Positions 22,144 through 58,165 of a DNA stretch of 64,000 nucleotides are shown piece after piece. The first letter of the stretch is position 1. Each line of letters opens with the position of its first letter. This DNA comes from a virus. The notes beneath the pieces were generated by a model. It was given only the letters and a program-made list of their open reading frames with translations. It was not told where the DNA came from and made no database searches. The position numbers and the translations under genes were made by a program. The stretch is taken from positions 1-64,000 of IMG/VR virus record IMGVR_UViG_3300048818_000230; one strand, given 5' to 3'.

Positions 22144-22310
22144 GCTTCAAGGGAACATGGCGTATGCACAACGAGGGTCCGATGATCCACCAGCAGACGG
22201 GGCCAAACTCCGTCACGTGGCAGAACGTGCCGGATGAGTACATCGAGGATGACGGTAAACCCTTCGAGGATGGCGAAGAAGTCGAGTTGCTTGTTAGGCG
22301 CGTGCAGTGA
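22140..22310 (+). CDS. hypothetical protein
   Basis: ATGA overlap with the nuclease stop, 56 aa. Confidence 0.35.
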   Translation: MSFKGTWRMHNEGPMIHQQTGPNSVTWQNVPDEYIEDDGKPFEDGEEVELLVRRVQ

Positions 22311-22311
22311 G

Positions 22312-25191
22312 ATGGCAGTAGCCGATCGCGTGTTCCCTCTGACCGAAGACCAAGTCAACACGATCCTCCAAGAGGGGCTGCAGCGCGCGCTCTTGGAGGC
22401 CGACGTTGAGGGAAATCTTCCCGCCGAAGCGAGCGAGCGCATGGCGATGGCACAGACACTCGTCGGCATGGCCGATCTCGCCTACAAAGCAGGCTCACGA
22501 GACGACGATGTGGCGACAGTGCTTTTTATCGCGGAAGTCGGCTACCAAACTCAGATTGTGAAACAGACAGGAGGAGACGACGTGGCAACAGAAATGACGG
22601 CGTTGGGCGACGAAACGCTCATCAAGATTGAGGGTGCCCTGTCGAAGTTGGGCGAAGAGGAAAGCGGCGAAGAGCTTCAGTTCGTGCGAGCCGAGCTCGA
22701 ACGACGCGGACTGCGCCAAGCCGACTCAGGCGCGAGCAATGGTGGTGCACAAGAGCCGGAGGCAGCAGCGGAGGCGCCAGAAGAGGGTGACACCGAACGC
22801 ACAGCGCTCGAGGACCGTCTGACGATTGGCATCATGCGCACGCACGGGATCGACCCGTCGGAGATCTCGAATCTGTCGATGGAGGGGCTGCGGTGGGTCG
22901 TCGAGCATCCTGATGCCCCTGCTGATCAGCCGCATGTGCTGGTCGTAGAACCTACTCCGTCACCAGAGGTCGCTGCAGCGGAGGAACCCGATCCTGGTTA
23001 CATCGAGACAGTGCGGATCCTGCCGGCGCAATCACCCGCGTCAGAGCCTGTGACCGCTCCTGAAGACGACGGCGAGGAAACGATCTCGGCCGAGCGCGAA
23101 GACCTCGAGGGTCGTGTGACAGGACCGATGCTCAAGTGCGTGGCGGTCGGCCAGCGTGTTCTTATGTCTGATGGCTCGAGTCGCGCGATCGAAAATGTGC
23201 GCATCGGTGACGAAGTTCTAAGTTCGGATGGTGTCCGTATTTGCGGCGATGTTGTCTCGGGCTTCTGGCATTCTGGCTACAAGGAGATCGTCCAGATTCG
23301 TCTTGCTGATGGTCGACAGATTCGCGTCAGTAAGGAACATCCAATTTATGGGTGGGACAGATGGGTGGCCGCTGGAGAACTACAGCTTGGTGATGCGATC
23401 TGCGTACCGTCGGTTACCAAGAGTGCTGTAGAGGGTTCGGCAGGCGTATCACTTGACGATGCCTTTTTGCTTGCTCTTTGGCTTGCTGAGGGCCTGAAAA
23501 ACATTACCCGCTACCAAGCGCTGAGATACACCAACGCCGACGATGGCGTTCATGAGCGTGTTGCTCGCATCGCAAACGAACGTGGTTGGGATGTGCCGAC
23601 ATATGCCAACCCGATCAACAGATCGATCATTCGGCGAAAAGGTGCTCCTCTTCTGGAAGGGAGTCCTTTGGAATTCCTACGTGGATACGGAATGAATGGT
23701 CTGGCCGTGGACACGATTCATGTGCCGGAAGCAATCATGCGTTCCAACACGGATGTGATAGCTGAATTTCTCGGTACATATATTTCCTGCGACGGTTGCG
23801 TCCAAATGAATAAGTCTGGGCGCCGGAACGGTGGATTGACGGTCAGTTCTGCGAGCGAGCGCTTAGTGCGAGATTTGCAGATATTGTCCGCGCGTCTAGG
23901 TGTGAGGTCGACTGTTGGCTCGGGGGAATCTCCCAGTCGACGTGGCTATCGAGTTGTATGGTCGTGGTACGTGAACACCATCGACTCGATCAAGGAAATG
24001 AGCAAGGTGGTTGTAGTTCCTGGCAAGCAGCACAAATTCGATGCGATAATGTCGTCAATCGAACTCAAGCGCACCTATGCTTCTCAGCTACCACCAGAGT
24101 TTCGCGATCAGTTCAAGACCAAGTCTCCCAAGCATGGACCTCGTGCTGTCATAGGCACGTGGATTACGCGCGACAAGGCGCTGGCATTGTGTGATCTTCC
24201 TCGTAACAACGTTGTTGCCGAGGGCATACGCGAGCTACTAGATGGTGGTCTTGGTTGGGCACGTGTAGCCGAGATTCGCGATGGAGGGATCGAATATACG
24301 GTTGATCTGGAGACTAGCCAGCATCATGCGTTCTTCTTGGAGGGCGCTTTGACGCACAATTCCTTTGGTCGCGGCCGAAACGATGTCCCTGGTATCGGCG
24401 ACAACGAGCTGCGCTTCATGCTCGAGAACCCCGAGGGTCGCGTGACGAAGGAGCAGCTTCTCGCTGCGCGCGAACTTGACGAGGTAGCAGCCGCTGGTGG
24501 GCCTGCGGTGCAGCGCGAGGAACCCAATCCGAGGCTGGCTGCCATCGAGGAAGCAATCGCCGAGGAAGAGGCGGCTGCTCACGGCGGCCCAGAGGCTGTC
24601 CATCAGCCCGATGGCTTTGCGCCGCCTGTTGCCGAACCAACACCAGTTTTGGAACCGGGCGGTATGAAGAAACTGGTTGAGGAAAAGATTGCGCCAGTAG
24701 ATCTTCATGTGCCCGAGGAGGCCACGCGAGATGCGCGTGAGCACTTCGACGCGCTGATCAAGCGTGAGCATCTTCCGATACCGCCAGACATTGAGGAAGA
24801 GCCACCGCGGCTGCCCTTCGATATGTCGAAATGTTCGGTCGAGGAACTCTACTCACTGCATGCTCGTTTCCACGCTTGTGAGGCGCGGATCTCTTTTCTG
24901 ATCACTAACGAGGAGGACTCTATTGGTGACCTTGAGAAAATGCGCCACGGGCGTGAGGTCGAAGTAGCGAACGAGTTGCCGACGACTATCGATCGCAAGA
25001 GACCTACTGAGGCCCAGCGAACATCTCTGATCGCTGCGGATCCACAGGTCCAGATCTATCTGACTGCCGAGCACAACATCGCAAAAACCTTGAGGAAATT
25101 GAAGGTGCTGCGCGATTCTTATCACAGAGATTGCGAGAGAAGCAGCCGCCAGTTGACGCGTTTCTCACAAGAGTTCGCCGGCACCAAATGA
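22312..25191 (+). CDS. acidic protein of unknown function interrupted by an intein
   Basis: ATG 22312 follows the upstream stop. Exteins are E/D/A/P-rich with a C-terminal coiled-coil-like region. Possible HhH-like VPGIGDNELRFM just after the splice site. Confidence 0.65.
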   Translation: MAVADRVFPLTEDQVNTILQEGLQRALLEADVEGNLPAEASERMAMAQTLVGMADLAYKAGSRDDDVATVLFIAEVGYQTQIVKQTGGDDVATEMTALGDETLIKIEGALSKLGEEESGEELQFVRAELERRGLRQADSGASNGGAQEPEAAAEAPEEGDTERTALEDRLTIGIMRTHGIDPSEISNLSMEGLRWVVEHPDAPADQPHVLVVEPTPSPEVAAAEEPDPGYIETVRILPAQSPASEPVTAPEDDGEETISAEREDLEGRVTGPMLKCVAVGQRVLMSDGSSRAIENVRIGDEVLSSDGVRICGDVVSGFWHSGYKEIVQIRLADGRQIRVSKEHPIYGWDRWVAAGELQLGDAICVPSVTKSAVEGSAGVSLDDAFLLALWLAEGLKNITRYQALRYTNADDGVHERVARIANERGWDVPTYANPINRSIIRRKGAPLLEGSPLEFLRGYGMNGLAVDTIHVPEAIMRSNTDVIAEFLGTYISCDGCVQMNKSGRRNGGLTVSSASERLVRDLQILSARLGVRSTVGSGESPSRRGYRVVWSWYVNTIDSIKEMSKVVVVPGKQHKFDAIMSSIELKRTYASQLPPEFRDQFKTKSPKHGPRAVIGTWITRDKALALCDLPRNNVVAEGIRELLDGGLGWARVAEIRDGGIEYTVDLETSQHHAFFLEGALTHNSFGRGRNDVPGIGDNELRFMLENPEGRVTKEQLLAARELDEVAAAGGPAVQREEPNPRLAAIEEAIAEEEAAAHGGPEAVHQPDGFAPPVAEPTPVLEPGGMKKLVEEKIAPVDLHVPEEATRDAREHFDALIKREHLPIPPDIEEEPPRLPFDMSKCSVEELYSLHARFHACEARISFLITNEEDSIGDLEKMRHGREVEVANELPTTIDRKRPTEAQRTSLIAADPQVQIYLTAEHNIAKTLRKLKVLRDSYHRDCERSSRQLTRFSQEFAGTK
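23137..24360 (+). mobile_element. intein (408 aa), class 1, with a double-motif LAGLIDADG endonuclease
   Basis: Cys1 CVAVGQRVLMSDG, block B VSKEHPIYGW, C-terminal FFLEGALTHN then +1 Ser. LAGLIDADG motifs LLALWLAEG and FLGTYISCDG. Confidence 0.8.
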
Positions 25192-27300: not shown

Positions 27301-29164
27301 CCTCGGCATCGACGTAGAAGCGCTCCGTGAGCTTCTGCCGACACTCGACGACGAGGGCAAGCGCCGGCTGCTGAGCAAGATCAACGTTCTTACGAAGGAT
27401 AAGCGTGGAACGCCAGCGGAAGCCGCGCGCCGCATTCCGACGACCGATGATGAACTTCATGCCTTTATCCTGCGGGAGACTGGCTACGACATCCCACGCG
27501 TTGCCGTATGCCCTGATCATCAGGCACCATTTGACTTCGTCGCAGATGCTTTTTTTGAGCGTTATGACGCGCTGTTTCTCTTAGGGTCACGCAGCTTGGG
27601 AAAAACGATCTCAGTCTCTCTAGTGCACTGGGTAAATGCTGAGGTGAGACCGGGCGCGACCGCATGTACGTTCGGCGCTATCGAATCACAGGCAGAGCGT
27701 GCTTACGCTCACGTGAAGTCGTTCGTGTATACGACCGACATGAACGGCCACAAGACACTAAACCCTCAGATGGTCGGTGAACCGCTGCGCAAGAAGACCG
27801 AATGGAAGACTGGTTCGACCATAGAAATTCTGGTTGGGTCGAAGAGCGGCGTGAACTCGCCGCATCCGCATAAGGTGCATGCAGACGAGGTTGACCTCAT
27901 GGACGAGGAAGTTTGGAACGAGAGTAGGTCGATGGCCAGCGGTAGTGTGGTAAATGGAAAGCGCATCGCGGCGCAAAACTTTGCGACCTCTACGCTGAAG
28001 TCAGCTAACGGTCTAGTGGCTAGCATTCTCAAGGAATGCGCGGATTCAGACGAGAAGGGATTTGTTCCTCCTTGGAAAATTTACCGGAGCTGCTGTTTTG
28101 AGAGCGCTGAGGAAGTTCCCAACTGCCAGTGCGCTCCAGAGGATGAACGTAGAGCGCGTCTAACGGAGCTGAATCTGGACCCAGATAGTCGTTGCGAATG
28201 TGACAGAATTGTGAAAGGTGAATGGGGTGAGGACAACCCTCGCACACTCGCCTCGGTATGCAAAGGCAAGTTTTTTCGCTCGCGTGGTTGGATGGTTCAC
28301 AACGACGTGATGCAGAAGTTCATGCAGAACACTCGCATCGTCTGGGACGCGCAGATGGAATGTCGTCGCCCGATGGCTGATGGGCTCTACCTTGAAGGAT
28401 GGGTCAGAGAACGGTTTTGCGTGAAGAATTGGGCGCCGAAGCCTGAGTACGGGAGCGTGTTTACTGCGACTGACTGGGGAGGCGGTGCGGAGAGCGCTGT
28501 CCTTTGGATACAAGGCCCGCTGCGTGTGCCTGTGCAGATTGCCGGAGTTGGTGGTGAACTGGTGACTGTCCCGAAGGGAGCGCACGTTACCTTCGACGAA
28601 TACCTCAAGGCTGGTATCGGAGCAACGAAGCTCGCCGACGAGGTATGCGCCCGAGAGGTCTACTGGCGACGTAGGGTCCAAGGCTTCCGAGTTGCAGCGC
28701 GCTTCGCCGATATGGCAGGGCGCCAGCAACGTGACGATTGGCGTGAGCACACTCCGCCGCTGCGCACCGTCTGGTGGCTCAGCTCGCGTGACTTCGATCC
28801 GCAAGTTGAGTCGCTTCAGGATCTGGTTGGCGACGGCCACTACTGGGTGGACATCGATCGTTGCTCTCGTCATTGCGACGATATCGAGTCCTGGAGACAG
28901 AAAAATGGTAGAGAAATTCACGACGCCTCGAGCCATTCCTGCGCTGCGGCGCGCTACGGCCATGCGTCGATAGTTTCGCGCGAGTTGCGGCGAGGTAACA
29001 GGGAGCAAAGCAGAGCTGTGGATCCGGTGGTTGTCCAACGCGGTGAAGCTAGCGCACCGTCCGCTATGGCTCACGCCGGTGATGGTTTTGATGGCGAGCG
29101 CCGTTGGCGTGAGCAGGTAGGGCAATACTTCCCCGATAGGAGCCCAGGCCCATGGCAACGATAA
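27281..29164 (+). CDS. terL: terminase large subunit
   Basis: Walker A LLGSRSLGKT, Walker B KVHADEVDLMDE, C-terminal nuclease-like region. Followed by the portal gene. Confidence 0.85.
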   Translation: MSTTTNSLGIDVEALRELLPTLDDEGKRRLLSKINVLTKDKRGTPAEAARRIPTTDDELHAFILRETGYDIPRVAVCPDHQAPFDFVADAFFERYDALFLLGSRSLGKTISVSLVHWVNAEVRPGATACTFGAIESQAERAYAHVKSFVYTTDMNGHKTLNPQMVGEPLRKKTEWKTGSTIEILVGSKSGVNSPHPHKVHADEVDLMDEEVWNESRSMASGSVVNGKRIAAQNFATSTLKSANGLVASILKECADSDEKGFVPPWKIYRSCCFESAEEVPNCQCAPEDERRARLTELNLDPDSRCECDRIVKGEWGEDNPRTLASVCKGKFFRSRGWMVHNDVMQKFMQNTRIVWDAQMECRRPMADGLYLEGWVRERFCVKNWAPKPEYGSVFTATDWGGGAESAVLWIQGPLRVPVQIAGVGGELVTVPKGAHVTFDEYLKAGIGATKLADEVCAREVYWRRRVQGFRVAARFADMAGRQQRDDWREHTPPLRTVWWLSSRDFDPQVESLQDLVGDGHYWVDIDRCSRHCDDIESWRQKNGREIHDASSHSCAAARYGHASIVSRELRRGNREQSRAVDPVVVQRGEASAPSAMAHAGDGFDGERRWREQVGQYFPDRSPGPWQR

Positions 29165-32100
29165 GCGTTGGCGATCTTGCATCGTTGGATCCGGTTCTCA
29201 CGCAGGCGACGGAAGGTCCATCGCCGACGCAGGAGAAGGTCATCGAGGCCACGAACGCCGTGGGCATCAAGACTCGTGTGGCGGAAGCTGCGGCAGCAGG
29301 CCCGACGACGCGGCAGCGTACACAGTCAGAGATTCTCGACCTCGAACTCGTCCGCTGGCGTCGCAACGATCCCTTCAGCGTTCGCCATATCCCCTTCGAT
29401 CAGCTCCGCGAGATGACCACCGATCTGATGCTGGGATTCGGGTGGTTCTTTACGGTCGCACCGTTGTGTCGTGCGGATTGGTTGATCGAATGTCCAGACG
29501 CGCAATTGGCAGCGGCTGTGGATGCAGCTTTCAGGCCAATCTCCACTGCGACGTATCTGAACTTCTCCAACGTTCTGTGGTATGGGCATCAGCCGCTCGT
29601 CAAGCGCTTCAAGCTAGCAAAGCTAGGCGGGTATTACCGCGACCCGCAGGCTGCGGATCCAAGCAAGGACATCCCGATTTGGACATCGAGTGCAGATGCT
29701 CTCTTGTGGAAGACACCGATGGCGGTCAATCCATCCCACTGTCTTCCGATGTGGGACGACGACGGCGACATGATTGGTTTCAAGTTCTCCACTCTCCCGA
29801 TCCCAAACTTCGATCTGATCAGCGCTGCTAGCGCGTACGGCTACATGGTCATTTCGGGAAGTGTCATCGACGATGATTACGCTCTGTGGCCAACGAATGA
29901 GGCTGAGTTGAACTTCGGATCCATCTACGGTTCACCGAGAACGAAGCGTGCATATCGCTACTGGTGGTGTAACCCGCCTGAGACTCCGATCCTTATGAGC
30001 GACTATACGCTACGTCCGCTCGGCAGCATTGAGGAGGGCGACGAGATCATCGGTTGGGAGCCAAAGATGGGCCGACGTGCATCTGGTTTGTATGCGCCTC
30101 GTGTTTGCATGACAAAGTCCATAGTCACAGCCGTGTCGAAGCGTGCAAAGCAAAAGATGGTCAAGGTTACGTTCGAGTCGGGCCATGTGATTCGCTGTAC
30201 TCCGAATCATGTCTGGAATCTGCATCCAACTGCTCAGAATAATGTCAGGCCAGGTAGGGATTCGGAGTGGGGGGTTGTCGAGGTTGGTCGCGAGATCAGT
30301 CGAGTCATTGATCTTCATGCCGGCGAACGTCCCTTCATCTACGAAGCTCTTGATGAGGAACAACAGATCGCTGCCAATTGGCTTGGGGGGCTGTATGACG
30401 GTGAAGGAAGTGGTGCTTTCATCGGACAATCAGAAAGTCACAATGGCCCTGTTCGCGAGCGCATGAAAGAATCATTGGACCTGCTGGGCTTTCAATACAC
30501 GTGTAATCCAGATTCATTCTGGATCAAGGGCGGCCGTGAAGAGTTGATGCGATTCGCTCGCCTCACACGTCCTACTCGCGTTTATGCGATGGATCGTCTT
30601 ATCATCGACAACAATAGTGCCAGCGGTGGTGGGTTTCGTTTTCGTCGCCCAGACAAGATCGTTTCCATCGAGCCTGACGGCGAGGATGTGGCGATTGGTC
30701 TTACGACAACTACGGGAAATTACATAGCGTGGGGTCTTGCGTCGAAGAACTCATACTGGTATCGCTGGGCTCTTGCCGATCGCGCGTTCGAGAACCACGT
30801 CGATCCGGCTAAGATCGTCTACTACCCAACTGACTTTGAAGAGTTCCTCGACAGCGAAGACAACCCGACCAATCAGATTACTCTGGCGCGCGAGAAGGCC
30901 ATCAGGCTTGGCGAAGCCACACGCTCAGGAGCTACGATTGCACTGCCTGCAGACTTCATCGAAGGGCCGGATGGTAAGCCAACTTCTGCCCGCAAATGGG
31001 AGATCACTCCGTACGCCTCGGGCCAGCAGCACTTCTCAGATCTCGATCAGACCTTCGCGCACCTCGACACGCTGAAGCTGCGGGCGTGGTTGATTCCTGA
31101 GCAGGCCTTCATCGAGGGAAGAGGGGCCTGTCTCCTAAAGACGACTCTGATACTAGCACCTCGAGATCACGATCTCTACCCAGACGGCATCCCCATGGAA
31201 GAGCTCAAGGATGGCCAGCTCGTCTGGTCCTATAACGAGCACGAAGCGCGCTTCCAACTGTGGCCCATCAAGGAAGTCGGCCCCACGAAGACGGACGATG
31301 TCTTCAAGCTCACGCTCGATAACGGTCAGACGATCACGGGGACTGCTGATCATCCCTTCATGCGTCGTGATGGTCGCTGGACAACGCTCGCGCTACTGAA
31401 GCCCGGCGACTCGCTGATGCCACTCTACGAGAAGATCGATCATGAGAAGCAGTACAACGGAAAGCCGATCAAGGAAGGCGATTCAGAGCCGTGGATTGCG
31501 GTTGGCCCCGGAAAGATCTACACGCCTGAGTTCAGGGCGGTGGGAGATCATTTTGGTTGGACGCGTCAGGGCCAAGGATTTGGCATCCATCACAAGGACG
31601 AACGTCACGCCAACTCGTCGATCGAGAATCTCGTCTTTCTGACTAACGGCGCACATACGGCTGAGCACTTCAAGAATCCTGAGTTCGCAGCTCGTCACAG
31701 CGAACTTGGTTCTGCTGCGATGGCTGAGTTCCAAGCTGGGAATACGCCTGTGGAGAATTTCGAGTTCGCTTCTGCGCGATCTCAGAAGGGCTGGGACAAC
31801 GGACGCACGAAGCAGCGCTGGAAGGACAAGGCTTGCGCGACGTGCGGGACGATGTTCACGCCGAATTCTGCACGCCAGAAGTATTGCGCGGATCACTCGG
31901 CGAAGATCCAGAAGAACGAAGCCACTCCGTATCAGGGGCGCATCAAGACGCCGCGGCCGTACAAGCTGAAGGACTGCATCGATTGCGGCAACGCTTTCTA
32001 TCCGACGAGTGGCGTGCAGAAGCGCTGCGAGGAATGCCAGGTCGCCTACAAGAAGAACTTCTCGCGCGACCGCAGGCTCGCCGAGATCTCTGATAACGCT

Positions 32101-33684
32101 CCCAACAACCACAAGGTCGTCTCAGTCGAGTACGCCGGCGTCGCAGAGGTCTGGGATATCATCATGGATGCTCCGGCGCACTGCAAGAACTATGTCGCCG
32201 AGGGCGTCGTCGTCCACAACACTTCGAGCCGCCTGATCGCCACTCAGCTCGGCGAGGTCTACCAAGAGTCTCAGCAGTTGCTGCTTGACGGCTGGGATGC
32301 CTATGTATCCGAGCACATGTTCCCGCAGTTCATCGCGGCGAACTTCCCGGAGAAGATTGGCACTCCCTGTCGGCGTGTCTCGAGCGGTCTCGGCGCGATC
32401 GACGAGCAGCTTCGCCAAACCGTGCTGACGTTGATCGGTCAGGTTCGAGGCAACGTGCTGCCTGTCGATATGCGCACGTTGCTGGCGCAGAGCGGAATCC
32501 CGCTGCTCAACGAGGCGCAGATGCGCCAGGAAATGAAGAACATCGCTGAGCTTTCGGCCGCCACAGGACCACCCGTTACTCCTCCTTCTGGGCAGGGACT
32601 CCAGGGTTACAACGCCGGTGTCGAACGCGTTGGCGTCGTGCGCACGCCGATGGGCGAGTCCCGTTATGAGACTCGTTACTTCCAACCGCCGCAGAGGATC
32701 CTTCTGGCCGAGTCCGATGGCTTCATGAATGAGCTGCCAGACACTCCCCACTACCGCGATGCCGGAGTACGCTCGGCGATCGTGCGGCTACGGAGGCTTT
32801 TCGTCGAGCGCTACAGCGATCAGTACGCCTCGTTCGCGAAGTTCTTGGAGGCTCAGCCAACCCTTCATCTCGCTGACGCTACGCAGCCGCAGGGCGTCTC
32901 TCAGGGCAACGCCAAGACAGCAGCAGCCGCGATCATCGCTGCGTGGGCTGCTGCGAATGCTCCTGGTGTCGTCGGCTCTCCGATCGAGGCGATCGGGACC
33001 GCAGGATCGACGGCGGCGAAGATGTCAGACCTCATCGGCAAGATCGGGCTCGCTGGTGGTGTCGGCGCACTGAAGGGAGCTCGACTCGACGCTGAGGACT
33101 TCGGCGCCGGCGTCTTGAAGCCGTGGGTGCAGCAGCGAGTCGGTAGCTCGCTCTCTTCGATCGACGATACCGTGCGTTCAGAAGCACAGAACTGGCTCGA
33201 GGATCAGCTCCAGCAGAGCGTGGATCCGCGCGCGGTAGCTGCTGCAGCCAAAGAGCACTTCGCTGATTTTCCGGCTACCCATGCTGATCGTGTGGCTCGT
33301 ACGGAAGTCCGCGATGCCTACAATCGCGGCACGCTCGAGGCTCTTCATCTCGCCGGCGTCGAACAGGTCCAGGCTCACGATGCTTCCGATGGCTCGAACG
33401 AGTTGACCGACGCTGAATGTCTGGCCAGAGACGGCAAGATCATGGGCGTGCAAGACGCGATGAGCGCTGATGAACACCCGAATGGGACGCTGTGGTTCAG
33501 CCCGCTCTCGACTGATCATCTGCGCGTCGAGCGCGTCGACGAGCTGCCGCTGCACCTCGACCAGAACGGTGCTCAGGTTGCCTACGACTCGCGCGAAGAG
33601 ATCCTCTACCTCCTGAGCGACGTCGACGCTGAGCATGAACGCATGTATCTGCTCATGCTGGGCGACCAGATCAGCTATCGCTGA
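29152..33684 (+). CDS. portal protein (Mu gp29/DUF935-like) fused to a MuF-like head morphogenesis domain, interrupted by two inteins
   Basis: Follows TerL. Extein is 885 aa after removing the inteins. C-terminal HADRVARTEVRDAYNRG...ECLARDGKIM...HPNG resembles the Phage_Mu_F domain. Confidence 0.75.
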   Translation: MATISVGDLASLDPVLTQATEGPSPTQEKVIEATNAVGIKTRVAEAAAAGPTTRQRTQSEILDLELVRWRRNDPFSVRHIPFDQLREMTTDLMLGFGWFFTVAPLCRADWLIECPDAQLAAAVDAAFRPISTATYLNFSNVLWYGHQPLVKRFKLAKLGGYYRDPQAADPSKDIPIWTSSADALLWKTPMAVNPSHCLPMWDDDGDMIGFKFSTLPIPNFDLISAASAYGYMVISGSVIDDDYALWPTNEAELNFGSIYGSPRTKRAYRYWWCNPPETPILMSDYTLRPLGSIEEGDEIIGWEPKMGRRASGLYAPRVCMTKSIVTAVSKRAKQKMVKVTFESGHVIRCTPNHVWNLHPTAQNNVRPGRDSEWGVVEVGREISRVIDLHAGERPFIYEALDEEQQIAANWLGGLYDGEGSGAFIGQSESHNGPVRERMKESLDLLGFQYTCNPDSFWIKGGREELMRFARLTRPTRVYAMDRLIIDNNSASGGGFRFRRPDKIVSIEPDGEDVAIGLTTTTGNYIAWGLASKNSYWYRWALADRAFENHVDPAKIVYYPTDFEEFLDSEDNPTNQITLAREKAIRLGEATRSGATIALPADFIEGPDGKPTSARKWEITPYASGQQHFSDLDQTFAHLDTLKLRAWLIPEQAFIEGRGACLLKTTLILAPRDHDLYPDGIPMEELKDGQLVWSYNEHEARFQLWPIKEVGPTKTDDVFKLTLDNGQTITGTADHPFMRRDGRWTTLALLKPGDSLMPLYEKIDHEKQYNGKPIKEGDSEPWIAVGPGKIYTPEFRAVGDHFGWTRQGQGFGIHHKDERHANSSIENLVFLTNGAHTAEHFKNPEFAARHSELGSAAMAEFQAGNTPVENFEFASARSQKGWDNGRTKQRWKDKACATCGTMFTPNSARQKYCADHSAKIQKNEATPYQGRIKTPRPYKLKDCIDCGNAFYPTSGVQKRCEECQVAYKKNFSRDRRLAEISDNAPNNHKVVSVEYAGVAEVWDIIMDAPAHCKNYVAEGVVVHNTSSRLIATQLGEVYQESQQLLLDGWDAYVSEHMFPQFIAANFPEKIGTPCRRVSSGLGAIDEQLRQTVLTLIGQVRGNVLPVDMRTLLAQSGIPLLNEAQMRQEMKNIAELSAATGPPVTPPSGQGLQGYNAGVERVGVVRTPMGESRYETRYFQPPQRILLAESDGFMNELPDTPHYRDAGVRSAIVRLRRLFVERYSDQYASFAKFLEAQPTLHLADATQPQGVSQGNAKTAAAAIIAAWAAANAPGVVGSPIEAIGTAGSTAAKMSDLIGKIGLAGGVGALKGARLDAEDFGAGVLKPWVQQRVGSSLSSIDDTVRSEAQNWLEDQLQQSVDPRAVAAAAKEHFADFPATHADRVARTEVRDAYNRGTLEALHLAGVEQVQAHDASDGSNELTDAECLARDGKIMGVQDAMSADEHPNGTLWFSPLSTDHLRVERVDELPLHLDQNGAQVAYDSREEILYLLSDVDAEHERMYLLMLGDQISYR
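29968..30750 (+). mobile_element. intein 1 in portal (261 aa), single LAGLIDADG-like motif, penultimate Lys
   Basis: CNPPETPILMSDYT (block A), RCTPNHVW (block B), WLGGLYDGEGS, DVAIGLTTTTGNYIAWGLASKN then +1 Ser. Confidence 0.7.
31129..32220 (+). mobile_element. intein 2 in portal (364 aa) carrying an HNH endonuclease and Cys4 zinc-ribbon repeats
   Basis: CLLKTTLILA, GTADHPFM (block B), GIHHKDERHANSSIENLVFLTNGAHTAEH (HNH), CATCG...CADH and CIDCG...CEEC, EGVVVHN then +1 Thr. Confidence 0.8.
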
Positions 33685-48000: not shown

Positions 48001-49046
48001 CGATCACAGATAGTCTGAATTTCAGCCGAATTCACAAAAGCACCTTGGAAACGCACACACGGCGCACCACCCATAGAGAACAGACCGTCACCATTACCCA
48101 AAAGTGCCTCGGCACCATTCTTGTCAAGAGCTACCCTAGAGTCTGTCATCGAACTCACTCGAAAGCAGATCCGTGAAGGGATGTTAGCTTTCAGTAATCC
48201 AGTGAAGATTTGCACTCTAGGTGATTGTGTCGCTAATACAAGATGGATGCCGACAGCGCGAGATTTCTGAGCCAACCGCACGATCAGCGACTCACTCTCC
48301 TTGCGGCTGCTCATCATCAGATCGGCCAGCTCGTCGATTACGACGACGATGTACGGACAAGGTGCGTATCCGGCAGCCTCGAGTTTCGTGTTGAACTCGG
48401 GTAACGAGCGCGCGGAAAACTTCTGCATGACGTCGTAGCGCATCTCCATGAGCTTGACGGTAGAGCGCAGACGAGCAAGCGCCGAGTCGACATCAGTGGC
48501 GATTGGCGCGAGCAACTGACTGATGCCCTCATAAGGCGCCAGCTCGACTTGCTTGGGATCGATCAGCACGAGACCAAGCTCATCGGGACCAAAGCGGCTC
48601 AGAAACGAGCAGAGCATGGCGTTGATCGCGGCACTTTTCCCAGAGCCAGTTTCGCCCAGAATGCCTAGATGCGGCGATTCGGCGAGGTTGCAGAAGATCG
48701 GGTTGCCATCCATATCCGGACCGAGCGGGAAGCTCAGCGGTTCAATCGGTGGCGGCATCGCGGCAAGATGCTCGATCCTGCGGTCGTTGCGTGCAACCTC
48801 GACGCCGATTTCGCCGGCTTTCCCAGCTAGCGGTGCCAGGATCTTCACGCGCGCTCCCAGCGCGAATTCCAGATCGACGCCCATGCGGTTGTACTCGCGC
48901 ATTCGCATCGGGGTAGACGGTTTCAGCTCGAAACGGTCTGACTGCGGCCCTGCAACGGTGCGCAGGAGCTCGCAGGAGCCACCGAGAGCGTCAAGAGCGC
49001 CCAAGAGCACGTCTTCCCTCGATGGTTCCGCGAGAACGGCGCTCAT
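47988..49046 (-). CDS. FtsK/SpoIIIE-family DNA translocase ATPase
   Basis: Walker A LGILGETGSGKSAAINAM, Walker B YIVVVIDELADLMM, HLVLATQSP. Confidence 0.85.
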   Translation of the reverse strand: MSAVLAEPSREDVLLGALDALGGSCELLRTVAGPQSDRFELKPSTPMRMREYNRMGVDLEFALGARVKILAPLAGKAGEIGVEVARNDRRIEHLAAMPPPIEPLSFPLGPDMDGNPIFCNLAESPHLGILGETGSGKSAAINAMLCSFLSRFGPDELGLVLIDPKQVELAPYEGISQLLAPIATDVDSALARLRSTVKLMEMRYDVMQKFSARSLPEFNTKLEAAGYAPCPYIVVVIDELADLMMSSRKESESLIVRLAQKSRAVGIHLVLATQSPRVQIFTGLLKANIPSRICFRVSSMTDSRVALDKNGAEALLGNGDGLFSMGGAPCVRFQGAFVNSAEIQTICDRWRS

Positions 49047-51568: not shown

Positions 51569-51656
51569 AGTCGTGCGCTCCTGTCTCGTCTCATTGCCGC
51601 TCGGTAGTGAGCGGGTGAGAGGATTCGACTCGCGCCAAATCCTCGCATCCGTTCCG

Positions 51657-51911: not shown

Positions 51912-52237
51912 CGTGGCACCCCGAATGCTTGGCGCAGCTCGCTTTCGCGCTTAGCGTCGATCTTGCGCGCGCTGAGCAGTCGGCGGCTATGTCCGCCCCA
52001 TTGACGAACTGAGCCATGATCTAGGTCGCGGATGAATCCGTGGCCGAAGTCGGCGCCGTCGACAATCTCCGCCAGGGAAACGCAGCGGTGAGCATTCCAG
52101 CGCGTTACGGCGCCGAGAATCGTCCACTTGCCACTGTAGTTCCAGCCGCGCGGACCATCGGAACGCGCGACGACATCGCCGCTATCAGTCAACAGATAGC
52201 GCGTATGGTCTCGTGTCGTCAGCTCGATCATCGCCAC
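51908..52237 (-). CDS. hypothetical protein
   Basis: 109 aa from GTG 52237. Alternative ATG 52231 overlaps the stop of a 23-codon mini-ORF (52228..52299) that follows the conserved leader. Confidence 0.45.
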   Translation of the reverse strand: MAMIELTTRDHTRYLLTDSGDVVARSDGPRGWNYSGKWTILGAVTRWNAHRCVSLAEIVDGADFGHGFIRDLDHGSVRQWGGHSRRLLSARKIDAKRESELRQAFGVPR

Positions 52238-52323
52238 ACCGCGATGTAGTTCGGTCGCACGATTCGGACTTCCTTGGGTGGTTTTGCTTTTGTGCGCATC
52301 GTCTCGTCTCTCTGTTTGGACTT

Positions 52324-52384
52324 GGCATCGTCAGACGCGGGCAGTCAATCCCGCGCGACGCCGCATAAGCGGCGTTTCGCCTAT
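52324..52384 (-). ncRNA. type II hammerhead ribozyme candidate HH-1 (one extra U after A9)
   Basis: AGGC-GAA-ACGCCGC-UUAU-GCGGCGU-C(52357)-GCGCGGG-AUUGACUG-CCCGCGU-CUGACGA-U-GCC, read on the minus strand. Confidence 0.55.
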
Positions 52385-53014: not shown

Positions 53015-53132
53015 AATCTCGTCTCTCTCTAGTTTGTGGAATCGGCCGGAAAGTCACTCCGGCAAGCCGCATGATCTCATCCGATGAGAAAGCCTCGCGC
53101 TCTAACGCATGCGGCGACAGTCTTAGGGTCGG

Positions 53133-53477: not shown

Positions 53478-53489
53478 CTAATCGTCTCC

Positions 53490-53557
53490 CTGTTAGCTCA
53501 TCAGCGCGAGATAGTCTGTCTCGCGGACACTCGCTCTAGCGCGAGTGTTTCGCTCAG
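53490..53557 (-). ncRNA. type II hammerhead ribozyme candidate HH-2 (fully canonical core)
   Basis: CUGAGC-GAA-ACACUCGC-GCUAGA-GCGAGUGU-C(53526)-CGCGAGA-CAGACUA-UCUCGCG-CUGAUGA-GCU-AA-CAG, read on the minus strand. Confidence 0.7.
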
Positions 53558-53802
53558 TCGGTCGGTAGAAACGTGCTCGATATCGAGCAATCTTGAGTCG
53601 AAGTCGTCACGTGCGGTACGCCTAGTAGCTCGGTGTCAGTGCCGACATACGGGCCGCTCACGCGGAGCTGTATCGTCCAACCGCGCCGATACTCGATGAT
53701 TCGACCAGTTGGGAACCCGTGCGCTTGCGCGTGCTCGACTGCATCCGCGCGTGTAGCGAAGTAGCGGATGCCCTTATGTAGCTTGCTCGTCTGCTCAGTC
53801 AT
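53554..53802 (-). CDS. hypothetical protein
   Basis: Internal ATG (MTEQTSKLHKGIRYFATRADAVEHAQAHGF...) with an 8-nt overlap onto the upstream gene. Confidence 0.4.
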   Translation of the reverse strand: MTEQTSKLHKGIRYFATRADAVEHAQAHGFPTGRIIEYRRGWTIQLRVSGPYVGTDTELLGVPHVTTSTQDCSISSTFLPTD

Positions 53803-54028
53803 CGCTACTCGCAGTCTGTAGAAAGCCGAATGCGCCGCAGTAGACCGCAACGTGAGTCCACTTCGCGCCTGTCACCGTATAGACGTTGTAAGTCTCGGCC
53901 GGATCAGTCCGGCGCTGGAGCATGTAGCGCGTGCAAGTAGCGAGCGATTGATAGTTGCCCGCGACTGTGCCGAGCGAACCTAGTCGGTCGCGACCGTTTG
54001 CGTCTGTCGGTCGCGCTATATAGCGCAT
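53795..54028 (-). CDS. hypothetical protein
   Basis: Internal ATG (MRYIARPTDANGRD...), 2 nt after the upstream stop. Confidence 0.4.
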   Translation of the reverse strand: MRYIARPTDANGRDRLGSLGTVAGNYQSLATCTRYMLQRRTDPAETYNVYTVTGAKWTHVAVYCGAFGFLQTASSDD

Positions 54029-54030
54029 CG

Positions 54031-54219
54031 CTACAGCTCCTCTGCGTAGTTGTGGACGGGATAGCAATGCTGCGCGGAGAATGCGTCAACCCGCGCGATG
54101 AAGTCGTCGACAACGTCGTGAGAGCGCTCGATATACGGGCGCGCGCAAGGATGATCGTCTGTATCGACGGCCGGATAAGGAACGTATACCGGCCACTCGC
54201 TAGTCAATGTCTGTACCAT
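54031..54219 (-). CDS. hypothetical protein
   Basis: Start MVQTLTSEW follows the conserved leader CAGAGAGACGAGACG directly after HH-3. Confidence 0.4.
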   Translation of the reverse strand: MVQTLTSEWPVYVPYPAVDTDDHPCARPYIERSHDVVDDFIARVDAFSAQHCYPVHNYAEEL

Positions 54220-54242
54220 CGTCTCGTCTCTCTGTCTCGCTT

Positions 54243-54299
54243 GGCTCGTCAGTGCGGGAGTCACCCGCAGACGGCGCTACTGCGCGCCGTTTCGCCCTA
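54243..54299 (-). ncRNA. type II hammerhead ribozyme candidate HH-3
   Basis: GGGC-GAA-ACGGCGC-GCAGUA-GCGCCGU-C(54270)-UGCGGG-UGACU-CCCGCA-CUGACGA-GCC, read on the minus strand. Confidence 0.65.
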
Positions 54300-54560
54300 T
54301 GCGAAGATGGATTCGTCGTGAGTCAACGCCCAGACAATCTGCTCGTCAGTCGCGTCCATAGCGTTGAGCGCGCTAGCAGCACCAGGGACGCCGCACAACG
54401 TCGTCCAACGGCCGATGAATTCGTACATACCGGGACCAGTGACGATGATCGTCGGCTGCTCCTGATCGGCCAGATTCGAGCCGTGCGCGTTCGGCCGGCG
54501 CCGAACAATGAAACGGCCTCGCTTCGTCTGAACCTCGCCGGATGAATCACTCTCAGTCAT
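54297..54560 (-). CDS. hypothetical protein
   Basis: 87-aa ORF. Its stop codon lies inside HH-3 stem II. Confidence 0.45.
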   Translation of the reverse strand: MTESDSSGEVQTKRGRFIVRRRPNAHGSNLADQEQPTIIVTGPGMYEFIGRWTTLCGVPGAASALNAMDATDEQIVWALTHDESIFA

Positions 54561-54833: not shown

Positions 54834-54891
54834 CGCTCATCGTCTCCCTAGATCGTCTCTCGCGCTAGTCTCACGCGCGTCTGATAGATGG

Positions 54892-54919
54892 ATCATACAC
54901 ATCTACATAGCTACGTCAA
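54892..54919 (-). promoter_or_regulatory. promoter TTGACG-N16-TATGAT for the minus-strand small-gene operon
   Basis: Counted on the minus strand. An AT-rich tract (CTTTTATTAGAAG) lies just upstream. Confidence 0.45.
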
Positions 54920-55518
54920 GGCTACTGTGATCACTTCTAATAAAAGGCTTTCGCCAGAGGGAAAGCACACCGCAGACAGGCGCTCAGCCATTGCTACGTA
55001 CTGATGCGAGACCTACTGTCGACGGAGAGCGGGAGAATCGCTCAGACCGCGCCGAAAGACTCTCTCTCAACCTTCCGGCCCTCTCAGTCACTACCTAGAG
55101 CGTGTCTCGTGAGTGCTCTAGCTTGTTTCACCGGACATAAGTGCTTGCGCTAGCTAGCAGTCTCTCTGTCACCTTCGCGCACTGCCGGCCGCGCGTACAA
55201 AACCCTGGACGCCGGAGCTCGGTCACCGGAAAGTATGTGATCCGATGTCCAAGAGAGCCCCGCCAACACTGAACGCGAACGCGGATTGAGAATCCCCCGA
55301 CCCTCCCCAGGGGTCTGCCTCTTGGCCATGCCGGCGCGCGATTCGACCCCGGATGGTAGACAGCTTGAGAACTCGCCAACAGAGCATTCCAACTCGCTCA
55401 GCAGAGGTCGTGTCATCGCTCAGAAGCGCATTGCGATGAGGAAGAGCTGCCCGAGCAAGCACCTACGCCGGCTATCAGAGCAGTGCTCTACTGACGGTAG
55501 GAAGGGGTCTGAGAGGGT

Positions 55519-55905: not shown

Positions 55906-56427
55906 GTGGGCGAGCCTGAACGTTGGGACATGGACGAGCGAGAGCTTGCTTGGGTGGAGGGGATTACCCGCAGTGGCCTGGACTTGAACTTCTTCCATGC
56001 CGAACAGTGCATTCTCCGTTTGCGCGAGGTCGATGCTTTCTCTGACGCGCAGGCTCTGTCAGACCGCGCGGTCTTCCGCATCCGCTGCCGCTGTACCGAT
56101 GTCCTCGCCGTCGACCTCGAGCGTATGTGTGTGCAGCTTGTGCCGCGGACGAGAGTGCTCGAACTCAAACAGATCACAGAGCCGGCCGCTGCCGACAAGA
56201 TCACAGTCACTCCTGCAGGAGTGTTTCCCGGCGAGGATCCCAACATTGCCGCAAGTGAACTTAGTGAAGACGAAGTCCGCGCGTTGTTACAGGGCGCGAC
56301 GATTACCGAGTTGGTCGAGCATCTGCATCCCGTCGAGGGTGATCGTCTCCAACTGACACTCGCAAGCGGCTACTCCGTGCAGATCGCTGCTCAGCGTCTA
56401 CGATTGAGCGCGGTGAAGATCGCGTGA
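55906..56427 (+). CDS. hypothetical protein
   Basis: GTG after GAAGGAG, 173 aa. Confidence 0.45.
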   Translation: MGEPERWDMDERELAWVEGITRSGLDLNFFHAEQCILRLREVDAFSDAQALSDRAVFRIRCRCTDVLAVDLERMCVQLVPRTRVLELKQITEPAAADKITVTPAGVFPGEDPNIAASELSEDEVRALLQGATITELVEHLHPVEGDRLQLTLASGYSVQIAAQRLRLSAVKIA

Positions 56428-56436
56428 GCACGTGTA

Positions 56437-56835
56437 TTGCGCGTCGCTGCAGGTACCAGCACGGCCTCGAGCATGGGCTGTGTGCTTACCACCGCGCGTA
56501 CGCAAAAGGCCGGAGGGACCGAAAGCATGGTTGCTGGGCAAGATCGCTTTGTGGATAGCTCCGTGGTTGGCATGAGCGACGAACACCAACTGCCGAGTAT
56601 GGGGCAATCCGCCAGTCGAGAATTGATCTGCGGCATCGTGTCCGAGTCTGGACCGAACCGTGAGCCGCTTGCGTGTGGCTACAAGAAGGGCCACGTCGGG
56701 GCGCATGCGTGGTACTCGCTGCCGACGTTTGTCAATGGCGAGGCCCAGGAGGTGCGGGCTCTCAGGGCGCGTTTGGCCCAGTCGGAGTGGATTGTCTGCG
56801 CTGAGGCCGAGCGCATGCTGGGGCCAACCCCGTGA
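56437..56835 (+). CDS. hypothetical protein (start uncertain)
   Basis: ORF-track frame. ATG 56527 has GGAGGG upstream. An alternative 44-codon Cys/His-rich ORF (GTG 56424..56558) overlaps the 5' part. Confidence 0.35.
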   Translation: MRVAAGTSTASSMGCVLTTARTQKAGGTESMVAGQDRFVDSSVVGMSDEHQLPSMGQSASRELICGIVSESGPNREPLACGYKKGHVGAHAWYSLPTFVNGEAQEVRALRARLAQSEWIVCAEAERMLGPTP

Positions 56836-56919
56836 GCCGCCGATCCGAGGACTCAGTGATTGAGCCGGGCCAGGTCTACGAGGCGCGGCGATGACCGGCC
56901 GCCGAAACGGAGCGTCACG

Positions 56920-57210
56920 ATGAGCTCCGACAACTGGGCGATCTGCCCTCGCTGCCTTGCCCAAGCAAAGGAGGCTTTCGGCGCGGAGGTCGCGCGCGTC
57001 GGTGCGATGTACGGCTCCGTGCCGATCGAGGAGTTCGATGCGGCGCGCGATGCGATCAAGGCCGTCGACCCTGAGGAGTACCGGACGTTCCGTGAGGACT
57101 ACGAGTTCTACGGGGCGGAGGAAGGCGAGATCACGGCCGACTACTCGGGTCATTGCAGTAAGTGCGCCCTCGGACTTGACTTCAAGGAAGCGAGGAGGTT
57201 CTATCCATGA
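56920..57210 (+). CDS. zinc-ribbon protein
   Basis: MSSDNWAICPRC...GHCSKC (CxxC...CxxC). Confidence 0.45.
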   Translation: MSSDNWAICPRCLAQAKEAFGAEVARVGAMYGSVPIEEFDAARDAIKAVDPEEYRTFREDYEFYGAEEGEITADYSGHCSKCALGLDFKEARRFYP

Positions 57211-57506
57211 GCGAGCGCCGCCAAAACGAGGCGTTGCGATTCGCCGATTTCGAGTACCCGCAGGACCCTGGCTACGCCAAATGGCCGACCGATGACGGCT
57301 ACGACGCTTGGATGGTGATGACACCCGACCGCTGCCTGTTCATGCTGGCGAACCCCGGCTCGAACATCGGCGGCGCTGTGCATGAGGTCGAGGAGCACGA
57401 GGACGGCACGATCACCGTCGAGCCGCGCCCCGGCAACTCAAACTCGATCCTTTCGCCGAAGGGCTGGCACGGCTACATCGATCACGGCGTTTGGAGGGCC
57501 GCATGA
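57207..57506 (+). CDS. hypothetical protein
   Basis: 99-aa ORF, ATGA-coupled. Confidence 0.45.
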   Translation: MSERRQNEALRFADFEYPQDPGYAKWPTDDGYDAWMVMTPDRCLFMLANPGSNIGGAVHEVEEHEDGTITVEPRPGNSNSILSPKGWHGYIDHGVWRAA

Positions 57507-58165
57507 CCGGCCGCCAAAACGCAAGCTCGCGTCCTCGGATTTTGGACCTGTTCTGCTGCCAAGGCGGCGCAGCGATGGGCTACCACAACGCAGGCTTCGA
57601 GGTCGTCGGTGTGGACATTGATCCGCAGCCGCACTACCCCTTCGAGTTCTGGCAGATGGATGCCCTCACATGGGGCGATTGGGACTTCTTCGACGCGATC
57701 CACGCTTCTCCGCCGTGCCAGCGCTACTCGAAGGCCACGCACCTGCGTGGCTACGAGCACCCGGACCTGATCGCGGCGACGCGCGAGCTGCTGATCGCCT
57801 CCGGTCTGCCCTATGTGATCGAGAACGTCGAGGGCGCTCGCGATGAACTGGTCGATCCGGTGATGCTGTGCGGCTCGATGTTTGGGTTGCGCGTCTATCG
57901 GCACCGCTACTTCGAGACGAACTTCTCGCTCACCGCGCCGTGGCACCCGAAGCACTGGCTGCGCCAGGTGAAGATGGGCAGGCCGCCGGCGTGGGACGAG
58001 ATCCATCAGCCCGTCGGCAACTTCTCGGCAGTCGACGAGGGCCGCGAGGCGATGGAGATGCCGTGGGCGTCCAGAGACGGGCTGCGCGAGGCGATCCCGC
58101 CGCGGTATGCGGAGCACGTTGGCGGGCGCCTGATGGCCCACCTACTGAGGGAGGCTGCGGCATGA
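57491..58165 (+). CDS. DNA (cytosine-5)-methyltransferase, short form
   Basis: Motif I ILDLFCCQGG, motif IV ASPPCQRYS, motif VI YVIENV. Confidence 0.75.
   Translation: MEGRMTGRQNASSRPRILDLFCCQGGAAMGYHNAGFEVVGVDIDPQPHYPFEFWQMDALTWGDWDFFDAIHASPPCQRYSKATHLRGYEHPDLIAATRELLIASGLPYVIENVEGARDELVDPVMLCGSMFGLRVYRHRYFETNFSLTAPWHPKHWLRQVKMGRPPAWDEIHQPVGNFSAVDEGREAMEMPWASRDGLREAIPPRYAEHVGGRLMAHLLREAAA

Follow-up and report, generated by a model that had tools for sequence, protein, structure and literature searches.

Does the short spacer at about 54.3 kb of the IMG/VR virus record IMGVR_UViG_3300048818_000230 encode an RNA that cuts itself, and if it does, what would the cut do for the genes on either side? 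We analysed positions 1 to 64,000 of that record (64,000 nucleotides (nt), referred to here as the window), for which a sequence-only reading had proposed a type II hammerhead ribozyme on the minus strand. We call this candidate HH-3 and identify it, like its two siblings in the window, by the position of the cleavage-site nucleotide C17, which is 54270 for HH-3, 53526 for the 53.5-kb copy and 52357 for the 52.3-kb copy. Our analysis supports the proposed interpretation, i.e. that HH-3 is a type II hammerhead ribozyme predicted to cleave after C54270. The stretch 54304..54237 (-) is very probably a type II hammerhead carried in a polycistronic transcript of the small genes of a phage-like element, where it would cleave itself after C54270 and so split the operon mRNA.

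The minus-strand RNA of HH-3 reads UAG-GGC-GAA-ACGGCGC-GCAGUA-GCGCCGU-C^UGCGGG-UGACU-CCCGCA-CUGACGA-GCC-AAGCGA, which on re-reading matched the sequence-only reading letter for letter, and a script placed the core, stem III, the GUC triplet with C17 at 54270, stem I, the CUGANGA box (N7 = C) and stem II in agreement with that reading. The whole ribozyme, including an extension of stem II, spans 54237..54304 (-), as delimited by the Rfam model RF02276, by an independent covariance model (R1, described below) and by the minimum-free-energy fold. All of its elements lie on the minus strand and follow one another in the RNA in this order: the 5' strand of stem II (GGC, 54294..54296, with C11.1 at 54294), directly behind the UAG at 54299-54297; the core nucleotides G12-A13-A14 (54291..54293); the stem III hairpin (54271..54290), in which 7 base pairs (bp), ACGGCGC/GCGCCGU (54290-54284 with 54277-54271), close the loop GCAGUA and of which A15.1-U16.1 is the first; C17 (54270), with the predicted scissile phosphate between 54270 and 54269; the stem I hairpin (54253..54269), in which 6 bp, UGCGGG/CCCGCA (54269-54264 with 54258-54253), close the loop UGACU; the core segment C3-U4-G5-A6-C7-G8-A9 (CUGACGA, 54246..54252); and the 3' strand of stem II (GCC, 54243..54245, with G10.1 at 54245). 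A 3' tail, AAGCGA (54237..54242), lies at the place where relatives have a pseudoknot partner, AAGUCA. The 5' strand of stem II was assigned from the sequence and script placement; G12-A13-A14 from the sequence, the Rfam alignment and the script; both hairpins from the fold, a descriptor (see below) and the script; CUGACGA from the sequence, the Rfam alignment and the core pattern; the 3' strand of stem II from the fold and the script; and the tail from these two together with the relatives. The script gave the position of C17, and the bond to be cut follows from what is known of cleavage in the family.

The 61-mer had as its minimum-free-energy structure exactly the hammerhead three-way junction (-27.7 kcal/mol). 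The extension of stem II through GCGA/UCGC across a small internal loop, which had been proposed from the letters, was present in the centroid of an 86-nt fold, where UCGC (54304-54301) pairs with GCGA (54240-54237) and AUAG/AA forms the internal loop between them. HH-3 has every structural feature that defines a type II hammerhead. Its conserved catalytic core (CUGACGA plus GAA) is free of substitutions and insertions; A54290-U54271, the A15.1-U16.1 pair, closes stem III and is followed by N17 = C (not G), which completes the GUC triplet; its three helices comprise 7 bp (stem III), 6 bp (stem I) and 3 bp (stem II), the last opened by G10.1-C11.1 (G54245-C54294); and stems I and III are loop-capped with stem II open, which is the type II permutation. 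What it lacks is about 1 bit of score (35.9 bits compared with a Rfam gathering score of 37, i.e. 1.1 short), the gathering score being an annotation cut-off and not a structural definition, and a pseudoknot joining loop I to the 3' tail by 4 bp or more, which is typical but not obligatory.

Could such a resemblance have arisen by chance? An account in which two ordinary intergenic hairpins happen to be flanked by GAAA and CUGANGA would draw on the score below the gathering threshold and on the GC-rich region, in which hairpins are common. The statistics effectively refute this account, and we leave it hardly any probability. A covariance-model search, a check that the sequence-only reading had suggested, returned a full-length match to Rfam Hammerhead_II (RF02276), aligned over all 66 model positions although under the cut-off, with an E-value of 0.0014 for the whole window and all 4227 families and of 5e-6 locally. 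The shortfall in score was due to the short loop I and the non-consensus 3' tail and not to the core. The core pattern CGAAAC..GTC..CTGANGA matched four times in the window where 0.15 matches were expected, and a descriptor combining the core with the three helices found exactly three sites, compared with a mean of 0.015 per shuffled window in 200 dinucleotide shuffles of the window; stem lengths comparable to those of the three sites occurred in 0/200 shuffles. All three sites are on the coding strand, intergenic and within 2 kb of each other, and R1, the independent model, gave HH-3 an E-value of ~4e-12. The remaining long operon spacers, on the other hand, had no ribozyme match (none to other ribozyme classes in Rfam at E <= 1), and most of their fold z-scores were unremarkable. 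The fourth match to the core pattern (48314..48388 (-), inside an FtsK/SpoIIIE-like gene) was put down to chance, being without helices and missed by the descriptor and by both covariance models. A reading of HH-3 as a terminator was also ruled out, as the ribozyme site contains no terminator-like site.

R1 was built from a scan of IMG/VR by a core-and-spacing pattern that required no pairing and yielded 75 viral loci, from which 22 diverse and cleanly aligned matches, none of them from the window, were taken as seeds. The pattern itself was derived from the core, stem II and following AA of the window ribozymes, and so R1 favours this subclass, stems I and III excepted. In the seeds stem III was 100% paired and stem I 98% paired, with two-sided changes at 12/15 pairs, and the covariation score of 0.656 (0.188 when shuffled) was reached by 0/500 shuffles. 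Run with its filters off, R1 placed HH-3 top in the window at 56.5 bits, followed by the 52.3-kb copy (52.8 bits) and the 53.5-kb copy (44.3 bits); the next match, at 58089..58148 (+), scored 13.3 bits (E 0.3) and was rejected, having a broken core and no stem I. Over the window and the viral loci together R1 found 249 hammerheads, among which HH-3 ranked about 96th. An alignment of 123 distinct sequences, which was fitted to the R1 model and so is tilted towards the structure, had 98.3% of its cells paired and 548 cells with two-sided changes, whereas slid controls were ~40% paired. The HH-3 row of this family alignment had standard pairs at all 16 of its 16 ungapped positions, its stem I being two pairs shorter than that of the model. 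Too few of the viral examples have the same geometry as HH-3 to allow a gap-free alignment with them.

The siblings are likewise type II hammerheads. The 53.5-kb copy (53485..53557 (-); Rfam 36.1 bits over 53488..53555) uses the UGA stop of its upstream gene as part of stem II, and the 52.3-kb copy (52314..52384 (-); Rfam 45.2 bits over 52315..52382, above gathering) carries an extra U behind A9 as well as a GACU/AGUC pseudoknot. The sequence-only reading had seen covariation between the copies and had taken it as a sign of selection on structure. That the stems differ and yet stay paired was borne out, and the signal is strong at the level of paralogues and of the family, but with respect to the 52.3-kb copy most of it dissolved into a register shift: the inner part of stem I is identical (GCGGG/CCCGC), the apparent changes reflect a shift of 1 bp, and the sole clean compensatory swap is one stem III pair, G-C to C-G. 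The 53.5-kb copy differs from HH-3 at nearly every stem position with all positions paired, and most of the real covariation lies against this copy and the wider family. Pair counts were not taken from the MAFFT alignment of the three window ribozymes, which mis-registered the stems.

Several observations weigh against reading HH-3 as a working and useful ribozyme. The first is the score itself, which is ~1 bit under the Rfam gathering threshold. The second concerns orthologues. A search of 5.8 billion proteins returned four homologues of the upstream 87-amino-acid (aa) gene (56-66% identity); IMG/VR contained none, and searching it with the neighbouring larger gene 56398..57324 also gave nothing. 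No hammerhead follows the orthologous gene in four diverged relatives (the homologue contigs, apart from one for which there was no DNA, and one further metagenome locus), and the ribozyme is therefore dispensable for that gene. In one of these relatives (L003) the orthologous spacer is 36 nt long and consists of a plain hairpin and a similar purine-rich ribosome-binding site (RBS). The other ribozyme-bearing copies, from two other samples (L001 and L002), are 100% identical to HH-3, and the searched collections held no diverged orthologue with a ribozyme and thus no orthologous covariation. Because the ribozyme-bearing orthologues are all identical, the support from covariation exists only at the paralogue and family level. 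An exact-pattern scan of IMG/VR for the shared 18-nt leader (see below) gave 0 matches, as did two scans of bacterial genomes for stem I plus core of HH-3 and an IMG/VR scan with a 3-nt spacer in the pattern (relatives have 4).

The third observation is the missing pseudoknot. The best helix between loop I and the 3' tail of HH-3 has 2 bp, which places its pseudoknot potential in the lowest ~13% of 189 viral examples; 65% of these examples have a pseudoknot of at least 4 bp, compared with 38% when the tails are shuffled. The majority, not all, of type II hammerheads pair loop I with the 3' tail, and disruption of the pseudoknot lowers activity 20-fold to >100-fold at 0.5 mM Mg2+ (PMC3088659). 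The ribozymes of the viral contig L066 (IMGVR_UViG_3300034268_000054) have the same UGACU loop as HH-3 but a tail, AAGUCA, that matches it, whereas the tail of HH-3 is AAGCGA; HH-3 may therefore be a slow or decaying copy. Finally, UUCGC, in the two codons just before the stop of the upstream gene, can pair with the core GCGAA, giving an inactive fold of similar energy.

We considered whether HH-3 is a decaying or crippled hammerhead, too slow at cellular Mg2+, that now serves as tandem GC-rich hairpins, e.g. as an exonuclease barrier or a spacer between translation units. The 2-bp pseudoknot potential next to a loop identical to that of relatives with 5-bp tail pairing, the cost in rate that pseudoknot disruption carries, the competing UUCGC/GCGAA hairpin and the plain hairpin plus RBS in the orthologous spacer all point this way. 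However, all core nucleotides and helix pairs of HH-3 are intact, which would not be expected after long neutral decay; in ~35% of the viral family, too, the pseudoknot falls short of 4 bp; many hammerheads rely on different tertiary contacts or do without any (PMC3088659); and the junction is the minimum-free-energy fold and is more populated than in the siblings. In its native context the active junction of HH-3 accounted for 7-42% of the secondary-structure ensemble (tertiary contacts being ignored), above either sibling. On balance we think decay unlikely: HH-3 may be slower than its relatives, but nothing points to decay of the core.

The tail of HH-3 pairs elsewhere: its GCGA pairs with UUCGC, within UUC GCA, the two codons that precede the stop of the upstream gene. 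They specify F-A, a C-terminus conserved in homologues that have no ribozyme. This raises the further idea that HH-3 has traded the pseudoknot between loop I and tail for a stem II extension borrowed from the upstream codons, such that ribosome traffic gates cleavage and the ribozyme acts as a translation-gated switch of mRNA processing. The UUC GCA codons may alternatively trap the catalytic GCGAA in an inactive hairpin, and as stem II starts at the stop codon, a terminating ribosome would therefore cover or melt both pairings; the traffic of ribosomes on the upstream gene could thus set when, or if, the ribozyme folds and cuts. We regard this idea as doubtful. Weighing against it, a stem II extension of at least 4 bp occurs in ~21% of the family, with or without a pseudoknot, and so is not distinctive; a separate pseudoknot-less subclass with extended stem II was rejected as unsupported (26% compared with 18% have an extension of at least 4 bp). 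If the idea were true, it would mean more broadly that phages use hammerheads as portable 'insulator plus RBS' cassettes, given the stop-ribozyme-RBS-start packing of ~160 viral examples, and the identical 18-nt leader behind two of the three window copies would be a trace of cassette duplication.

Returning to the preferred reading, i.e. a type II hammerhead that divides an operon transcript, we asked where HH-3 lies relative to its neighbours. The upstream gene (54297..54560 (-), 87 aa, no assigned family) ends in the TAG that had been noted at the 5' strand of the ribozyme; this stop directly abuts stem II, and the homologues of the gene end at the same residue. The start codon of the downstream gene (54031..54219 (-), 62 aa, no assigned family) lies 23 nt after stem II. 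In between, as had also been described, is the leader CAGAGAGACGAGACG (54234-54220, followed by ATG at 54219), a purine-rich region with the features of a ribosome-binding region in its sequence that folding left unpaired in the predicted 3' cleavage product (feature 54220..54234 (-)). HH-3 thus fills the spacer from stop to RBS, 0 nt from the stop and 23 nt from the start. All three hammerheads are on the minus strand, within 2 kb, between minus-strand genes of one predicted operon. In each of them the ribozyme starts at the upstream stop (uag followed by GGCGAAAC, uga followed by GCGAAAC, and uag followed by GCGAAAC) and ends ~17-24 nt ahead of the next start codon, and independent gene calls on an identical contig left the ribozyme intervals intergenic. 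Behind both HH-3 and the 52.3-kb copy stands the same 18-mer, ATG included, CAGAGAGACGAGACGAUG. Variants of the purine-rich leader motif precede most of the operon genes, and the leader is therefore the RBS style of the element and not part of the ribozyme. At the 52.3-kb copy the next start codon opens a mini-ORF (open reading frame) of 23 codons (52228..52299 (-), MRTKAKPPKEVRIVRPNYIAVWR) that gene callers skipped and whose UGA shares bases with the AUG that starts the following gene (AUGA). It may encode a translationally coupled leader peptide, or be what is left of a ribozyme-RBS cassette that was duplicated.

The predicted operon runs on the minus strand from ~55.4 to 49.2 kb and comprises about twenty small genes, many of them joined by stop and start codons that overlap; the operon and flanking genes that were tested had no PHROG or Pfam family. 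A promoter-like site, TTGACG-16-TATGAT (54892..54919 (-), a consensus match only, 10/12), lies ~600 nt upstream of HH-3 and is likely, on its sequence, to be the start of the operon transcript. Upstream of it in the same 316-nt spacer (54834..55149) is a terminator-like hairpin with a U-rich tail (54966-54947 (-)), and the spacer probably marks where one transcription unit ends and another begins, a short way upstream of the operon with the ribozymes. No terminator-like site was found on the minus strand between the promoter-like site and 49 kb, and the three ribozymes would therefore share one transcript, as far as consensus matches can tell.

Two other operon spacers contain hairpins that are not hammerheads. 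The spacer 53015..53132 (-), of 118 nt, holds the hairpin CCGGAGUGACUUUCCGG, whose loop contains UGACU as does loop I of HH-3; GACU is present in loops of all three hammerheads, and this spacer had no Rfam match and an unremarkable fold z-score. The spacer 51569..51656 (-), of 88 nt, holds an 11-bp hairpin (GAGGAUUUGGC/GUCGAAUCCUC) and a second hairpin, with a z-score of -2.2 and no Rfam match, and these hairpins may form some other type of element for processing or stability.

What would cleavage of such a transcript do? Hammerheads cleave by attack of the C17 2'-oxygen on the phosphate next to it. If the strand is transcribed, the nascent RNA would fold into the three-way junction, with stems I, II and III round the conserved core, and would then cut itself after C54270, leaving a 2',3'-cyclic phosphate on the upstream fragment (at 54270) and a 5'-hydroxyl on the downstream fragment (at 54269). 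The upstream mRNA, with the 53-aa and 87-aa genes, would retain its stop codon and end in the GC-rich 7-bp stem III hairpin plus one nucleotide; the downstream mRNA would have the stem I hairpin at its very 5' end and would expose the RBS leader 30 nt on. Folding of the predicted cleavage products showed them hairpin-capped, with the RBS unpaired. Terminal hairpins and a 5'-hydroxyl should slow exonucleolytic and 5'-end-dependent decay of bacterial mRNA. Together the three ribozymes would split the operon transcript into blocks, each with two or three genes and the final one continuing downstream, and the stability and translation of the blocks would become mutually independent, as with an engineered ribozyme insulator. 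Behaviour of this kind is documented elsewhere: cleavage has been shown both in vitro and in vivo for clustered (triple) prophage hammerhead arrays (PMC3088659) and in vivo for type II hammerheads close to phage genes in Desulfovibrio vulgaris (PMC8782182), and the RiboJ insulator lifts downstream expression 2-10 fold in Escherichia coli (PMC6206723). Against such a role it must be set that a 2019 review considers the biological role of bacterial and phage hammerheads still unproven (PMC6765202).

The same cuts could in principle serve a different purpose, in which pairs of hammerheads excise a gene block (e.g. 54269..53526) that an RtcB-type ligase would then circularise or join, giving circular or spliced phage mRNAs. 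The ends that hammerheads leave are of the type that RtcB ligases use as substrates, and the three same-strand ribozymes bound blocks of ~0.75 and 1.2 kb. Perreault et al. raised the possibility, but they sought spliced or circular products from arrays of this kind and found none (PMC3088659). Moreover, no ligase gene was seen among the annotated proteins of the window, and no feature of the sequence demands excision, which we consider very improbable.

To place HH-3 in its family we measured the spacing of the viral examples. Among the 163 for which both neighbours were resolved, the ribozyme lay a median of 6 nt from the upstream stop and a median of 24 nt from the next start codon (interquartile range 20-27 nt; no null model of spacer lengths was applied). 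The pattern points to a stop-ribozyme-RBS-start cassette akin to engineered ribozyme insulators; HH-3, with 0 and 23 nt, is typical of it. The 2011 paper makes no mention of stop codons (PMC3088659), and a literature search that was not exhaustive did not find the spacing rule. Many of the IMG/VR loci (numbered L007-L081) hold dense same-strand type II arrays in which nearly every intergenic spacer has a ribozyme (e.g. L021 on its minus strand, L022, L048, L061 and L035), reaching 11 in 14.6 kb (L021), 9-10 in 8.2 kb (L061) and 8 in 5 kb (L035). Two methods agreed on the counts (descriptor, 243 sites; covariance model, 249 matches), and by comparison the triple arrays whose cleavage the 2011 paper tested are far sparser.

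As a single instance HH-3 is of small importance, and it holds little surprise for the specialist because gene-flanking clusters in prophages have already been described (PMC3088659). It is nonetheless of modest value on three counts. The density of hammerheads in novel phages is under-counted, because the Rfam gathering threshold misses HH-3 and one of its two siblings. HH-3 is also a natural variant without a pseudoknot whose nearest relatives keep theirs, which makes a convenient pair for gauging the tertiary contact in a native transcript. The constant distance of ~24 nt to the start codon and the arrays of up to 11 per contig offer a testable clue to the purpose of bacterial and phage hammerheads (PMC6765202).

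What kind of element carries these ribozymes? Its genes include a DnaB-like helicase, a primase, DnaE, an intein-bearing RecA-like protein, a Cas4-like exonuclease, a tyrosine integrase and an FtsK/SpoIIIE protein. The closest phage proteins share only ~31% identity with DnaE, and nucleotide searches of GenBank phages in near and distant modes gave no match. Judged from its genes, the window appears to be part of a novel phage-like mobile element; that it is a phage is likely, short of proof, because an integrase and phage-type replication genes are present but no virion genes were seen in the 64-kb window. Three large plus-strand genes (18408..20564, 22234..25191 and 29152..33684) are apparently interrupted by inteins or homing-endonuclease domains: one is RecA-like with LAGLIDADG, one (985 aa) has Hint and LAGLIDADG, and one (1510 aa) has an intein splicing domain and an HNH match. 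This intein load is unusually high for a single element.

How does HH-3 compare with known systems? With the Rfam family RF02276 (Perreault et al. 2011, PMC3088659) it shares the permutation, an identical core, a 3-bp stem II, the A after stem II and an intergenic, phage-associated context; it differs in its short loop I (5 nt), in a 3' tail without the consensus pseudoknot, in its score (35.9 compared with 37 bits) and in a stem II to which the final codons of the upstream gene can add 4-5 bp. The same paper described triple arrays in Agrobacterium tumefaciens (around ardA), Clostridium scindens and Azorhizobium caulinodans, and proposed that they cut long transcripts into mRNAs of gene or operon length. 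There, as here, with three ribozymes in 2 kb, several same-strand hammerheads border individual genes or small gene groups in a prophage-like region, although the flanked genes are unrelated, the present host element is novel, and cleavage was demonstrated for those arrays whereas it is predicted for HH-3 from its sequence. The type II hammerheads of D. vulgaris (cyPhyRNA-seq, PMC8782182) also adjoin hypothetical and phage-like genes, but they are scattered over three places in the genome and do not share an operon.

By sequence, the closest relatives found for HH-3 are the four copies of contig L066. They match HH-3 in the inner stem I and loop (GCGGG-UGACU-CCCGC) and in the CUGACGAGCCAAG segment, and they too are several copies on one strand; they differ in the AAGUCA tail with its 5-bp pseudoknot to UGACU, in a stem I that is 3 bp longer, in stem III and in their flanking proteins, which are unrelated. 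In function the closest parallel may be the RiboJ insulator, which was derived from a satellite-RNA hammerhead of a different permutation. RiboJ is synthetic, with an added 3' hairpin, whereas HH-3 is natural, of type II and situated between two genes rather than after a promoter. In both, however, a hammerhead just 5' of the RBS strips, or in HH-3 would strip, the upstream RNA and gives the downstream gene a standard hairpin-led 5' end (PMC6206723), and HH-3 lies 23 nt from the start codon, compared with the viral family median of 24. Clustered type II hammerheads between prophage genes have been known since 2011 (PMC3088659), and HH-3 is a new example of them in a novel host element.

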